A stretch of DNA of 64,000 nucleotides from a virus. Taxonomy: Duplodnaviria; Caudoviricetes. Under the pieces are notes generated by a model. That model had not been told where the DNA came from. It made no database searches and was given only the letters and a program-made list of their open reading frames with translations. A program made the position numbers and the translations under genes. The stretch covers positions 26,308 to 90,307 of IMG/VR virus record IMGVR_UViG_3300005403_000005; one strand, written 5' to 3'. This document shows positions 41,099 through 46,634 of this stretch, piece by piece (within the stretch, counting starts at the first letter, position 1; every line of letters starts with the position of its first letter).

Positions 41099-41692
41099 AT
41101 GAGTGGTTTTGAGATGTCCAAAGAGATGAAGATTGTCATGTTCCCTACGGCGAACCTTGAGCTCGCTGACTACAACCCGAGGAGTATCTCGGCATCAGAG
41201 TTGGAGAAGTTGAAGAAGGGGTTGCAGGAATTTGGCTGCGTGCAGCCGGTGCTTGCCAATACCGCAACTGCAATCGTCAAGGGTAACGCAAAGGTTGTTG
41301 GCGGTCATCAGCGACTCACTGCGGCAAGAGCGCTGGGGTGGACGGAAATCCCTACCATCATCATCAGTGAGCCGAGCGAAAAGCGCGAGAAAGCCCTAAA
41401 TCTTGCGCTTAATAGAATCAGTGGCTCGTGGGACTTCGACAAATTGGGGAGCTTGCTCTCTGAGCTGAATGATGGCGATTTCGATGTTGAGCTTGCTGGT
41501 TTCGACGAGATTGAAATCAAGGAGCTTGATGGCATCGATGACAGCATCGCAGAGGGTGCCTTCGGTGGGTTTGAGCCAGCACGCCCCGCTGCCCCGCCCA
41601 CAGAATTCAAGACATTCGACGAGGCAATAGAGACTGACTACTGCTGTCCTAAGTGTGGCTACGCTTGGAGTGGCCGTCCTAGGGGGAATTAG
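41099..41692 (+). CDS. ParB-N-like domain protein with C-terminal Zn ribbon
   Basis: LADYNPR, FG.VQPV, VVGGHQRL, NLALNRISGSWD, CPKCGY. Confidence 0.85.
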   Translation: MSGFEMSKEMKIVMFPTANLELADYNPRSISASELEKLKKGLQEFGCVQPVLANTATAIVKGNAKVVGGHQRLTAARALGWTEIPTIIISEPSEKREKALNLALNRISGSWDFDKLGSLLSELNDGDFDVELAGFDEIEIKELDGIDDSIAEGAFGGFEPARPAAPPTEFKTFDEAIETDYCCPKCGYAWSGRPRGN

Positions 41693-42226: not shown

Positions 42227-42407
42227 ACTACCTCCCTACGCCGAAATTCACGCTTGGCGGCTTCAATAATCTGGTGATGCAACTCCCGATTCCGCAGAAT
42301 AGGGAGCAGGCATCATATCTCAGGCGCTTGGAGCGCTTGGCAAAACGAAAGTAAACAGTAGGCGTACGATATGGTGTTGCGCTGAATTGGAATTGGAGGA
42401 TGGACTG

Positions 42408-42689
42408 ATGGACAAATTGGAACACATAGTAACATGCATCTCCGAGGAGTGCGCCGAGATTTCCCAGATAGCGAGTAAGTCTCTCCGCTTCGGCCTTAAC
42501 GACACATATGAGGAGAAATCCAACATCGAGCGGCTCAATGAGGAAATCAATGACCCGATTGCCGTGATTGAACTTCTGAGCGAGGAGTGCGATGTGGTCA
42601 TCAAAGTGAATGACCGACACATCGAGGAGAAGAAGGCGAAAGTCCTCCGCTACATGCGTTACGCAAGGGAACGCGGGACGCTAGAATGA
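42408..42689 (+). CDS. MazG-like nucleotide pyrophosphohydrolase family protein
   Basis: EECAEISQIASKSLRFG...LNEEIND pattern. Confidence 0.6.
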   Translation: MDKLEHIVTCISEECAEISQIASKSLRFGLNDTYEEKSNIERLNEEINDPIAVIELLSEECDVVIKVNDRHIEEKKAKVLRYMRYARERGTLE

Positions 42690-43882
42690 GCAAGATTGTC
42701 GGTGTTGTGGGGGTGGGAACGAACGTCAGCTACAAACCACGATGGCAGTCGCCACATTTGCCATCCACGACGATACTTGCAAATGGACCCCTGAAGCCGG
42801 GGGATAGCGGGTGGGTGCAGATAGGGGAGTATGACCCGGAAGAGGACAAGAGGATGGCGCAGGAGAGTGGAGTTGTAAAGCCTCCATATACGATACCAAC
42901 GATGGAGGAGATACGTGCGATACCGTGGAATGGATTTAATGTTGTTTCTACGTTTTCTGGCGGTGGAGGTAGTTGCCTTGGGTATCGTATGGCTGGTTTT
43001 AGGGTGCTTTGGGCAAACGAGTTTGTCGAAGCAGCCCAAGACACATACAAGGCGAATCACCCGAATAGCATCCTTGACACGCGGGATATCCGGACGATTA
43101 AACCCGAGGAGATTCTGGCGGCGACGGGACTCAAAGTAGGGGAGCTTGACATCTTCGATGGCTCCCCTCCATGTTCCGCATTCTCCACGGCTGGGAAGCG
43201 CGAGAAGGGTTGGGGGAAGACGAAGAACTATTCTGATGGAAAGGAACAGGTCGTAGATGACCTCTTCTTCGAGTACGTCCGGATACTGAAGGGGCTTCAA
43301 CCCAAGGTGTTCATCGCGGAGAATGTCTCCGGCTTGGTGAAGGGCGCTGCAAAGGGCTACTTCCTGATGATTCTCAAGGCGCTCAAGGATTGCGGCTACT
43401 CCGTAGAGGCGAAGCTCCTCAATGCAGAGTGGCTTGGTGTTCCCCAGACAAGACTGCGGGTTATATTCGTTGGGGTGCGGAATGATTTGGTCGATGAGCG
43501 GGGCGTATCTCCTGTTCATCCTCAACCCTTCCCGTATCGCTACTCTCTCAGGGAGGCAATTGCTGACCTTGAGTGGTATCGTGCCGGGGGCTACTTCGAC
43601 AGATGGAAATCAGCAGATGAGCCCTACGGGACTGTACCCGCAGATGGACATCGACTGCTCTACTCGGCATACATGAGCGCCAATGGCTACGTGATGGATA
43701 AGGCGGGCGATAAGCGGAAGCTGATGATTCCGGAAGTGAAGCGCCTCTGCTCCTTCCCAGATGACTTCATCTTGACTGGAAATGAGGCCCAACAATGGGA
43801 ACGCTGTGGACGCTCAGTGCCGCCACTGATGGCAAGGGAGATTGGCTTGTCTGTGCTCAATGGCATATTGAGGAAACTATGA
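42686..43882 (+). CDS. C5-cytosine DNA methyltransferase homolog, predicted carboxymethyltransferase (CmoX-like)
   Basis: FSGGGG, DGSPPC, ENV, PQTRLR; motif X reads GRSVPP instead of GNSVPP. Confidence 0.85.
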   Translation: MSKIVGVVGVGTNVSYKPRWQSPHLPSTTILANGPLKPGDSGWVQIGEYDPEEDKRMAQESGVVKPPYTIPTMEEIRAIPWNGFNVVSTFSGGGGSCLGYRMAGFRVLWANEFVEAAQDTYKANHPNSILDTRDIRTIKPEEILAATGLKVGELDIFDGSPPCSAFSTAGKREKGWGKTKNYSDGKEQVVDDLFFEYVRILKGLQPKVFIAENVSGLVKGAAKGYFLMILKALKDCGYSVEAKLLNAEWLGVPQTRLRVIFVGVRNDLVDERGVSPVHPQPFPYRYSLREAIADLEWYRAGGYFDRWKSADEPYGTVPADGHRLLYSAYMSANGYVMDKAGDKRKLMIPEVKRLCSFPDDFILTGNEAQQWERCGRSVPPLMAREIGLSVLNGILRKL

Positions 43883-44091
43883 TAATGATAGAAATCAACT
43901 CTTGGATGATTCCGCTGGCAGTCTCCCTCATTACGTCATTCCTCTTGTTTCAAGAGGCCAATAGAGTCTCAAGTTCAGGATTCTTGGGGAATGCCCTTGA
44001 GATGATGTTCGCCATGATAGGCTCGGTTATATTCGGCTTGGTTGTGTGGCTTGTGTGGGCTCTCGGCAAGTTATTGGGATGGTGGATATGA
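43879..44091 (+). CDS. Small membrane protein
   Basis: ATGA overlaps on both sides; two hydrophobic segments. Confidence 0.6.
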   Translation: MIMIEINSWMIPLAVSLITSFLLFQEANRVSSSGFLGNALEMMFAMIGSVIFGLVVWLVWALGKLLGWWI

Positions 44092-44960
44092 TTCAAAGGA
44101 TATACGATAAGTTGAAGTATGAGTATCTGAGAGCCGCCACAAACGGCTCTTCTTTCTTGAAGAGCAATCCGTCTAAGCAATCCCTTGTGTTGAAGTACGC
44201 ACAAGAGGATGTTCCGGAGCTCTTTGTCAATGTCATGGCGGCAAAGCTCTCTGATGGGACTTGTGGAGCCAAGGTCATCCGGGTCGATGAGAAGACTGGG
44301 AATACGACCTCATACACCACTGTCTATAAGCCTGACGGGACTGCGATGATTGTGGAGAGTGCCGACCTGACACGGTTGCGCTGCGGCATGATGGCGGCAC
44401 TCTCCGCAGAGTTCTACCTCGGTCGGTCTGCTCTCAACAGCGAAACGAGGGTGGGCTTCATCGGGAACGGTAGGACGAACATCAAGACTGCACAAGTGTT
44501 CTTTGAACTTTTTGGCATCCGGAAATTCGTCATTTGTGGGCACCCCAGTTTCCCCGCCCGTAATTACGATAAGTTCATCGAGTATGGCAACGTCGAGGTC
44601 GCAAGCAGGGATAATGGTTACGAGCCGCTACGCAAGTGCGATATCGTCATCTCCTGCACAAATACTGTCAGTGAATGCGACATCCTTGAGTATGAACAAC
44701 TCAAGGGACCGAGGCTTTTCATCTCTCAAGATGGGGGCTACATCTTCGGCGAATCCTTCCGCAAGGAATGTGGCACATTCAGCGACCATCCGACACAACT
44801 TCTCCATGCTGCCCCTCACGAATTCCCGTGGGACAAGGGGGAGCTGAGTGTAGTCTTCCCGATTGAGATGCTGGAAAAGCTTCCTGTCTCGGATAAAGTC
44901 CCTGCGGTCTATCTCTATGGCATTGCGCTTGCGGATGTCGTAGTGGCAATTGGGGGTTGA
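44088..44960 (+). CDS. Ornithine cyclodeaminase / mu-crystallin family protein (divergent)
   Basis: LTRLRCGMMAALSA (cf. LTxxRTAAxSA), VGFIGNGRT Rossmann loop, CDIVISCT. Confidence 0.7.
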   Translation: MIQRIYDKLKYEYLRAATNGSSFLKSNPSKQSLVLKYAQEDVPELFVNVMAAKLSDGTCGAKVIRVDEKTGNTTSYTTVYKPDGTAMIVESADLTRLRCGMMAALSAEFYLGRSALNSETRVGFIGNGRTNIKTAQVFFELFGIRKFVICGHPSFPARNYDKFIEYGNVEVASRDNGYEPLRKCDIVISCTNTVSECDILEYEQLKGPRLFISQDGGYIFGESFRKECGTFSDHPTQLLHAAPHEFPWDKGELSVVFPIEMLEKLPVSDKVPAVYLYGIALADVVVAIGG

Positions 44961-44961
44961 G

Positions 44962-45861
44962 ATGGCTTTGAAAGAGATGGTTGCTACAAAGGAAGAGTTG
45001 GCCATATACGAAAGGATGCGCCACTCAATCACGGACTCAGACATTGGAGCTTTCCGCAACCTCTGCCTGAAGCGGATTGAGCAGATTGACCCCAATAGAA
45101 ATGCGGCGCTTGCACTCTCCGGTGGCACGGATAGCGTGACGATACTCTTCTCGATGTTGGCGATGGGGAGGAAGCCTCGGTGTTACACGTTCCATGTCGA
45201 TGGGATTGTCTCCACTGACCTCCTCTCCTCGCGCAACCTGTGCAAGCACTTTGGCCTTGAGCTCGTCGAGCTGACGCTTCCCAGCGACCCTGACGCCATT
45301 GCTGGGGATATCCGGCAGTACATCAACCACTGCCACACGATTAAGAAGACGGTCGTGCAGTGCATGCACCCGTGGCTCTATATCTATCCGGCAATGGCAG
45401 AGCGGGGCGATACGCTCATCCTCAATGGCTTGGGCGGGGATGACCTGTACTGCAATCAGCGCAAGGTGAATGTGGCGCAACAGCAATTCGGCGAGGCGGC
45501 CATCATCCCGTGGCGCAAGGTGTGGTCGGATGATATCAAGTTCAGTGCGGCGAATATCATCCTCTGGGGCGATACGGAATTCGGGATTACCAATACCGAC
45601 TTCTACAAGTTCCCAGAGATGGAAGAGTGGTTCCTTCAGTTCCCGATTCGCTCCCTCCATCGTCCCGTCGAGAAGTATCCCTCCGCAGCCGCCTTCAAGG
45701 AGATGTACGCCAAGGGGAACTTCTACAGGAAGCATGACAGCTACCAGATTAACAGTGGGCTCAAGAAGACCCACGAGAAGCTCCTCGACACGCCGTACAA
45801 TCTGAAGGGGGCGAAGGATATGATTACCATCTACAATGATTTCGCCAATGGGAGGCTGTAA
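44962..45861 (+). CDS. Asparagine-synthase-like PP-loop ATP-dependent amide ligase, no glutaminase domain
   Basis: ALSGGTDS PP-loop; LNGLGGDDLY; about 300 aa. Confidence 0.75.
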   Translation: MALKEMVATKEELAIYERMRHSITDSDIGAFRNLCLKRIEQIDPNRNAALALSGGTDSVTILFSMLAMGRKPRCYTFHVDGIVSTDLLSSRNLCKHFGLELVELTLPSDPDAIAGDIRQYINHCHTIKKTVVQCMHPWLYIYPAMAERGDTLILNGLGGDDLYCNQRKVNVAQQQFGEAAIIPWRKVWSDDIKFSAANIILWGDTEFGITNTDFYKFPEMEEWFLQFPIRSLHRPVEKYPSAAAFKEMYAKGNFYRKHDSYQINSGLKKTHEKLLDTPYNLKGAKDMITIYNDFANGRL

Positions 45862-46634
45862 TGGGTGGCGGAGATATGAGAGTTGATTCTGTGATTCCGG
45901 GCGAGAAGTGGGAGTTCGACGCAGAGGTCACAGCCTGTTTCGACAATATGCTGGAACGCTCGATACCCGATTACCACAATATGCGAGAGATGTGTTTCAA
46001 TGTTGGCTCCCGCTACGTGCAGCCGGGAACCTTCATCATCGATTTGGGCTGTAGCAGGGGCGAAGCGCTTGCGCCATTCGTGGAGCGCTACGGCACCGCA
46101 AATCGCTTTATCGGGGTGGAAGTATCTTCCCCTATGGCTGAAGCTGCAAAAGCTCGCTACGGTCATTTGTGTCACCCTGATGCAAATCCCGTCGTGGATA
46201 TCCAAACCCTTGATTTGCGGCGTGAATATCCCCTTCCGGTCAATCCGATGAATGGCTGGGAGGGGCGGGGCTCTTCGCTCGTCATGAGCATCCTGACGCT
46301 TCAATTCACGCCAATAGAGCATCGCCAGCGGATACTGCTCGACATCTACCGCAACATGGAGTTGGGTGGCGCACTCATCCTGGTCGAGAAGGTTCTTGGC
46401 GCTACGGCGGAGTTGGATTCGCTGATGGTGGATGCGTACTACGAGAAAAAGCGGGCAAATGGCTATTCGCAGGAGGATATCGACCGGAAGCGGCTCTCGC
46501 TCGAAGGTGTCCTCGTCCCGGTCACGGCACATTGGAACGAGGAGCTTCTGCGGGGCGCTGGCTTCCGTCACGTGGATTGCTTCTGGCGAAATCTGAACTT
46601 CGCCGGATGGGTTGCGATTAAGACGAGGGAGTAG
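45861..46634 (+). CDS. cmoA: Carboxy-S-adenosylmethionine synthase (CmoA-like)
   Basis: WEFDAEV..CFDNMLERSIPDY, DLGCSRG, LTLQF, GGALILVEK, GYSQEDIDRKR.SLEGVL, FWR..NF. Confidence 0.9.
   Translation: MGGGDMRVDSVIPGEKWEFDAEVTACFDNMLERSIPDYHNMREMCFNVGSRYVQPGTFIIDLGCSRGEALAPFVERYGTANRFIGVEVSSPMAEAAKARYGHLCHPDANPVVDIQTLDLRREYPLPVNPMNGWEGRGSSLVMSILTLQFTPIEHRQRILLDIYRNMELGGALILVEKVLGATAELDSLMVDAYYEKKRANGYSQEDIDRKRLSLEGVLVPVTAHWNEELLRGAGFRHVDCFWRNLNFAGWVAIKTRE

Follow-up and report, generated by a model that had tools for sequence, protein, structure and literature searches.

The closest described relative of the locus analyzed here is the modification system of Synechococcus phage S-B43, in which CmoA makes carboxy-SAM, CmoX places a carboxymethyl group on C5 of cytosines within GC motifs, and CmoY adds glycine by ligation (PMC12783734). 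The products are 5-carboxymethylcytosine (5cxmC) and then its glycine amide, 5-glycylcarboxymethylcytosine (PMC12783734; PDB 8YF3). The S-B43 ligase (SpCmoY) is itself devoid of a glutaminase domain, a glutaminase-fused type forms the second-largest CmoY cluster, and the CmoY ligases of other clusters may take other amines (PMC12783734). The same study noted the co-occurrence of ParBc with cmoX clusters. For the ornithine cyclodeaminase (OCD)/mu-crystallin superfamily, a catalytic tetrad and residue equivalences have been defined; a Glu (Glu56; Glu63 in LCD) is conserved in OCD and LCD alike, and the opine-forming tauropine and strombine dehydrogenases are members as well (PMC4141209).

Organization of the locus

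We analyzed a stretch of 64,000 nucleotides (the window) from a virus record of 90 kb with direct terminal repeats. A C5-methyltransferase (C5-MTase) gene, a 70-aa ORF, a 290-aa ORF of the OCD fold, a 299-aa ligase and cmoA follow each other on the plus strand with abutting or overlapping starts and stops, and a ParB gene is located upstream of the C5-MTase gene (Table 1). The ORF coordinates thus bear out the preliminary description, which had placed the OCD and ligase genes between the MTase and cmoA; the 70-aa ORF, probably a passenger, was missing from it. In locus L026 an HNH gene occupies the slot of this ORF. The cmoX start is overlapped by a gene for a MazG-like NTP pyrophosphohydrolase (phrog_4856; 42387-42689), and L026 contains an ORF of similar size.

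Table 1. Predicted genes of the modification cluster in the window.
Feature	Position	Strand	Remarks
ParB_N-domain protein	41099..41692	+	PF02195 E=4e-8; usual companion in cmoX clusters
CmoX, predicted DNA cytosine C5-carboxymethyltransferase	42686..43882	+	Best PDB match 8YF3 SpCmoX E=1.6e-75
Hydrophobic 70-aa ORF	43879..44091	+	Unconserved in related clusters
OCD/mu-crystallin-fold oxidoreductase, 290 aa	44088..44960	+	Member of a subfamily linked with phage DNA modification; may supply the amine
ATP-dependent amide ligase of the CmoY type (with only the AsnB synthetase domain), 299 aa	44962..45861	+	Clade distinct from glycine-using SpCmoY
CmoA, carboxy-SAM synthase homologue	45861..46634	+	TIGR00740 E=3.5e-43; phrog_4752

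In the window CmoX, the SPPC motif is intact, as is the counterpart of SpCmoX R350, an Arg within ERCGRSVPP. The window CmoA shares 30% identity with SpCmoA and scores 148 bits against TIGR00740, for which the equivalog cut-off is 193. The preliminary description presented the cluster as a candidate for an undescribed system, a proposal that does not stand as worded, since cmoX, cmoY and cmoA form a known scaffold and the glutaminase-less ligase is a described CmoY type (PMC12783734). The carboxymethyl scaffold is published; the new part is the OCD-fold enzyme within a cmo cluster. No link between the OCD fold and phage DNA modification was found in the literature searched.

As a separate observation, the tetramer GATC is nearly absent from the window (0.01 of expectation over positions 1-64000, far under every other tetramer), which suggests a GATC-directed restriction or a Dam-dependent system of the host.

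The OCD-fold enzyme

The 290-aa protein contains the two motifs that had been reported, RCG (residues 98-100) and GNGRT (residues 126-130), and matches PF02423 with 27.3 bits (gathering score 24). Its AF2 model (pLDDT 90) shows the two domains of the OCD fold. Foldseek matched this model with OCD/mu-crystallin structures only (E~1e-13), and the ten best structural neighbours all belong to the same superfamily (Z 23-26, other folds at most 12.3). The proviso attached to the preliminary description, that a structure prediction might reveal another fold, therefore falls away.

A profile search over 1.84 billion representatives returned 99 subfamily proteins at E<=1e-30 and 119 at E<=1e-10, and full-length ordinary OCD proteins start only near E 1e-9 to 1e-7. 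The subfamily is a discrete, mostly phage family of about 120 clusters. No cultured phage with the family came up when four members served as tblastn queries against 50,697 phage records (INPHARED); BFVD yielded no match, and none was found in plasmids.

Seven residues (K30, K62, R98, G126, G128, G278, and D283) are invariant in the 99 aligned members, and the catalytic tetrad K30-K62-R98-D283 is complete in each of them, with the tetrad and subfamily-marker positions mapped by HMM alignment to AfAlaDH. The dN/dS values of the family lie mostly between 0.03 and 0.23. Because the tetrad is whole throughout and dN/dS is low, the enzyme is presumably active. The position of the cyclodeaminase Glu56 (residue 48) holds Asn, Thr or Ser, with Glu in 0/99 members and Arg never; Lys at the equivalent of Lys232 (218-220) is likewise found in 0/99, which leaves the Asp (D215, 98/99) as the single retained residue of the cyclization triad E56-D228-K232. 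An equivalent of AlaDH Arg52 also occurs in 0/99 members. Where Rossmann strand 2 ends, the expected site of the NAD-specific Asp, four of the 99 have an acidic residue, and the consensus reads Gly-Ser followed by basic residues. We infer that the subfamily consists of active NAD(P)-dependent 2-oxo acid/imino acid oxidoreductases, distinct from canonical OCD, LCD, and AlaDH. Proline, pipecolate and alanine, which the preliminary description listed as products of OCD-family enzymes, are thus disfavoured, as the marker residues of the corresponding enzymes are missing in 99/99.

Scores against named families agree with this view. The archaeal AlaDH model TIGR02371 gives 16 bits (cut-off 409) and the SbnB equivalog 21 bits (cut-off 327). 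A canonical SbnB, involved in diaminopropionate synthesis, was considered and rejected on account of this low score and of the OCD loci read, in which no PLP cysteine-synthase-type neighbour (the SbnA-type partner) is annotated. The best profile match is 8J1C, an NADP-bound amino acid dehydrogenase (E=4e-13), which likewise has Asn at the Glu56 position.

The ligase

The 299-aa protein carries the motif SGGTDS at residues 53-58 and, as the preliminary description stated, has no Ntn glutaminase domain, PF00733 being the sole Pfam match. Its structural model (pLDDT 97) resembles the synthetase half of AsnB and beta-lactam synthetase. An AsnB synthetase domain with a PP-loop, without a glutaminase, and adjoining cmoA and cmoX, is the profile of a CmoY-type ligase. 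The proposal that the ligase amidates the carboxymethyl group accordingly gains support, and the protein is predicted to act on 5-carboxymethylcytosine (PMC12783734).

The glycine-ligating SpCmoY cluster is defined by about 30% identity or more and shared motif residues; the window ligase has neither, with 24% identity to SpCmoY. In a tree of 27 ligases (FastTree, with long branches and only seven ligases on the SpCmoY side), a branch with support 99 parts SpCmoY and six OCD-less relatives from the group that contains all OCD-linked ligases. Pocket residues, assigned from alignments, follow the same division: at positions 133, 161 and 264 the ligases of the window clade have Q, an acidic residue (43/49), and N (44/49), and those on the SpCmoY side have E, G/S/L/N, and mostly G. 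The ligase of L004 is 48% identical to that of the window and has the motifs in common. The window ligase is thus probably among the clusters with ‘alternative amine substrates’ (PMC12783734), and the base in the phage DNA very probably differs from the glycine amide.

Linkage of the OCD gene with the ligase

Outside the window, 13 distinct loci (L001, L004, L007, L008, the L009 group, L012, L023, L024, L026, L028, L031, L038, and L041) have an OCD gene upstream of a CmoY-type ligase, directly adjacent in 11 of them. Twelve of these loci also contain cmoX and 11 contain cmoA, the exceptions being truncated sequences, and the ParB neighbour is present in most OCD loci. The adjacent locus tags LPL29_14490 and LPL29_14495 represent one further pair. 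All cmoX genes checked in OCD loci, a set that leaves out the intein-containing cmoX of L023, retain the diagnostic Arg. The linkage of OCD, ligase, cmoX, and cmoA is conserved in many unrelated phages, and the OCD-cmoA linkage, on whose absence the preliminary description would have been abandoned, therefore holds.

To avoid circularity, loci were also retrieved via the ligase alone. Where the upstream DNA was intact, an OCD gene was present in 5/5 loci at a ligase identity of at least 43% and in 0/4 at 40% or less. Three loci (L042-L044) encode related ligases without OCD, so the OCD enzyme appears dispensable for part of the ligase clade. Resolution in the trees of OCD and ligase is too low to support a claim of co-divergence.

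The 112-kb element of the cultured Azospirillum sp. Sh1 (L041:5285-10989) encodes parB, OCD, ligase, cmoX, and a divergent cmoA, and is the only cultured source found for the full cluster. Locus L028 (2852-5199) contains two cmoX genes in tandem, both with the diagnostic Arg, and L023 (7722-12266) contains two ligase paralogues besides its intein-containing cmoX.

Other combinations occur around related genes. In L046 (3-2729) genes for a DegT-family aminotransferase and CmoA lie downstream of a CmoY-like ligase, with the contig ending upstream of the ligase; an amino-sugar amide on 5cxmC is a possible product. The best 80 of 443 cmoA matches are dominated by one redundant phage group. A large group of IMG/VR phages (L075-L154; e.g., L093:3296-6726) encodes parB, a 504-aa tandem-ParB/Rossmann protein, a small ORF, and cmoA, but lacks cmoX. 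The 504-aa protein has LDFGAG and VLNSVPF motifs and belongs to phrog_5475, which has no known function. CmoX gave no match in four records of this type (74-100% complete), with a control record matching. The protein is a candidate adenine-N6 or cytosine-N4 carboxymethyltransferase, an activity for which PMC12783734 reported finding no enzyme.

Accessory genes and a second partner class

Some OCD operons contain additional genes. Spermidine synthase (SpeE) and SAM decarboxylase (SpeD) genes are found in L004 and L007, and an LPG_synthase_C gene (aminoacyl-tRNA-transferase-like) in L008, L009, and L024. In these gut phages the latter lies between the ligase and cmoA (L008:7696-8598, L009:7515-8396, L024:1176-1845) and could serve a tRNA-dependent extension of the modified base. 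An ORF between OCD and ligase in L023 was considered as another aminoacyl-tRNA transferase and rejected (hhalign probability 0.2). Both kinds of neighbours suggest side chains that bear additional amino groups. The window genome encodes neither SpeD/SpeE homologues of the L004/L007 type nor accessory genes of the L008 type. The polyamine link is therefore indirect, and a di- or polyamine or a basic amino acid of the host would have to serve.

Sampling of other branches of the OCD tree revealed a second partner. Four loci (L022, L056, L059, and L155) have the order QueC1-OCD-QueC2-DpdA/TGT-like, and in two of them QueD and a radical SAM gene of the QueE type are present as well. As PP-loop ATPases, QueC and CmoY each adenylate a carboxylate linked to the base, and a nitrogen nucleophile then attacks the adenylated group. 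Given this similar chemistry, the common need of both pathways would be an amine. No link to a cyclodeaminase was found in the DpdA/QueC phage literature searched, a single mention in one genome-mining paper aside.

OCD-family genes also lie near N6/N4-type methyltransferases and ORFs of no known function at the P0064 locus and in L057 (4947-7894). No PP-loop ligase was detected at either site, and these contexts possibly represent a third pathway. One further member lies among replication genes with no recognizable partner. In bacteria, three separate captures of an orphan OCD were counted, and five rumen orphan loci represent one misbinned piece of DNA and are not independent. Stand-alone copies of the phage type in Syntrophobacterales and Clostridia genomes (L002:6001-6888, L030, L035, L037) are nested among phage sequences. 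Purifying selection acts on the orphan copies in Syntrophobacterales (dN/dS 0.16-0.23); the (incomplete) Syntrophobacterales genome that bears one yielded no ligase.

Proposed pathway and alternatives

We propose a post-replicative hypermodification of cytosine by four enzymes, in which the OCD-fold enzyme supplies a free amine other than glycine by reductive amination; this reading has, in our judgement, about an even chance of being correct. CmoA would make carboxy-SAM and CmoX would carboxymethylate cytosine at C5 in the phage DNA, as was shown for the S-B43 homologues and as the intact motifs suggest here. The OCD-fold enzyme would reduce the imine of a 2-oxo acid and an amine with NAD(P)H, probably NADPH, to give a free amino acid that is missing from the host's own pool. 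The ligase would then adenylate the carboxylate of 5cxmC and amidate it with this product via its remaining primary amine, giving a non-glycine 5cxmC amide that presumably helps to evade host nucleases. The ligase chemistry is predicted from its family; the OCD reaction and the identity of the amine are what we infer. An opine-type condensation is preferred for the former because the superfamily includes the tauropine and strombine dehydrogenases and because the accessory genes suggest amino-rich side chains. The product that we prefer, though with low confidence in this exact class, is an opine-type compound, i.e., a di- or polyamine or basic amino acid capped with a 2-oxo acid and keeping one free primary amine.

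The OCD enzyme could instead act on DNA, capping or deaminating a host diamine or amino acid that the ligase has already attached. The resulting base might not differ from that expected with a free amine, and tailoring by a 2OG-Fe oxygenase can follow ligases of the SpCmoY group: in Salmonella phage Sen-NF (PV359490; L072:4983-6506) such an oxygenase gene, of the 2OG-Fe(II) type, is located behind a CmoY-like ligase. We found no cmoA or cmoX within 5 kb of that ligase, and in Erwinia phage pEa_SNUABM_5 and Pseudomonas phage PaBG a 200-aa ORF of no known function occupies the oxygenase slot. Against an action on DNA, the median pI of the OCD family is 5.6, with 5% of members above 8; CmoA has a median of 5.3, CmoX of 8.9, and the ligases of 8.1, whole-protein pI being a crude indicator. 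In addition, orphan OCD copies are conserved without a ligase, and characterized OCD-fold members use free metabolites as substrates (PMC4141209). The acidity shared with CmoA and the conserved orphans would favour, though not decisively, a free metabolite as the substrate, and tailoring on DNA is an unlikely reading.

It is slightly less likely that NH3, released by the OCD enzyme through deamination of an L-amino acid, makes up for the missing Ntn glutaminase domain, which would give the primary amide 5-carbamoylmethylcytosine. QueC uses NH3 and glutaminase-QueC fusions exist, and the tetrad supports oxidative deamination; the size of the glutaminase-fused CmoY cluster (PMC12783734) points the same way. 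However, a primary amide needs neither SpeD/SpeE nor an aminoacyl-tRNA-transferase-like gene, so that the preliminary suggestion of an NH3 supplier leaves the linked SpeD/SpeE genes unexplained, and the equilibria of the OCD family favour amination (PMC4141209). Longer proteins also yielded no fusion of OCD with a ligase, which is weak evidence.

A true cyclodeaminase that makes proline from ornithine or pipecolate from lysine for subsequent ligation is decidedly improbable. Fold, tetrad, and the Asp228 equivalent would allow it, and pipecolate, which a single enzyme can make, is absent from most hosts, but the Glu56 and Lys232 equivalents are absent from every member and the NAD-specific Asp is gone; both OCD and LCD retain the Glu. 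We hardly credit a known glycine amide, or the amide of another common amino acid, with the OCD enzyme only raising supply or hitch-hiking: the ligase does retain the KKT motif of SpCmoY and part of its clade has no OCD, but OCD adjacency is maintained over ligases that are ~24% identical and over the unrelated QueC partner, and the pocket residues are unlike those of SpCmoY.

Beyond the cytosine pathway, the phage OCD family may constitute a portable amine-supply module that provides an opine-like amino acid to unrelated DNA-modification pathways (5-carboxymethylcytosine via CmoY, 7-deazaguanine via a QueC paralogue, and perhaps the amino-methyltransferase clusters), giving undescribed bases on cytosine and guanine. 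We advance this broader reading tentatively, at somewhat below even chance.

Comparison with known systems

The DNA of this phage likely carries a base that has so far escaped identification, with an amine attached to a carboxymethyl handle. As to which other amines CmoY enzymes use, a question raised in PMC12783734, the cluster points to a specific ligase clade with a dedicated partner enzyme. If the proposal is true, it adds a new DNA base and a new reaction of the OCD/mu-crystallin superfamily, for which no tie to nucleic-acid modification was found in the literature searched, and it implies a mix-and-match logic common to cytosine and deazaguanine hypermodification, with two modification pathways tied to one unrecognized enzyme family. 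Enzymatic labelling of DNA could also profit from a ligase that takes larger amines.

With the OCD/mu-crystallin superfamily (compared through AfAlaDH (1OMO), 8J1C, P2C/ketimine reductases, OCD/LCD, SbnB, and tauropine/strombine dehydrogenases) the window protein shares the fold, the Rossmann motif, and the [R/K]-K-R-D tetrad. It differs in having at most 18% identity, in an E-value gap exceeding 10 orders of magnitude that separates its subfamily, in the absence of the subfamily markers of OCD, LCD, and AlaDH, and in its context of phage DNA modification. The polyamine-modified bases alpha-putrescinylthymine and alpha-diaminopropanylthymine (PMC13458397) are similar in that an amine is placed post-replicatively on a pyrimidine C5 handle, but they rely on a thymine/hmU handle, other enzymes, and a host-supplied diamine, without OCD. 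Phage 7-deazaguanine modification (QueD/QueE/QueC/DpdA; PMC6884629, 10.1101/2023.04.13.536721) shares the activation of a base-linked carboxylate by a PP-loop enzyme, with the same OCD subfamily in its operons, and differs in the base. The S-B43 system remains the nearest: it has in common with the window cmoA, a cmoX that retains SPPC and the counterpart of R350, an AsnB-type ligase lacking the glutaminase domain, and ParB as a neighbour. Unlike that system, for which PMC12783734 mentions neither ornithine cyclodeaminase nor crystallin, the window has a ligase of another clade with different pocket residues, and adds the OCD-fold enzyme.
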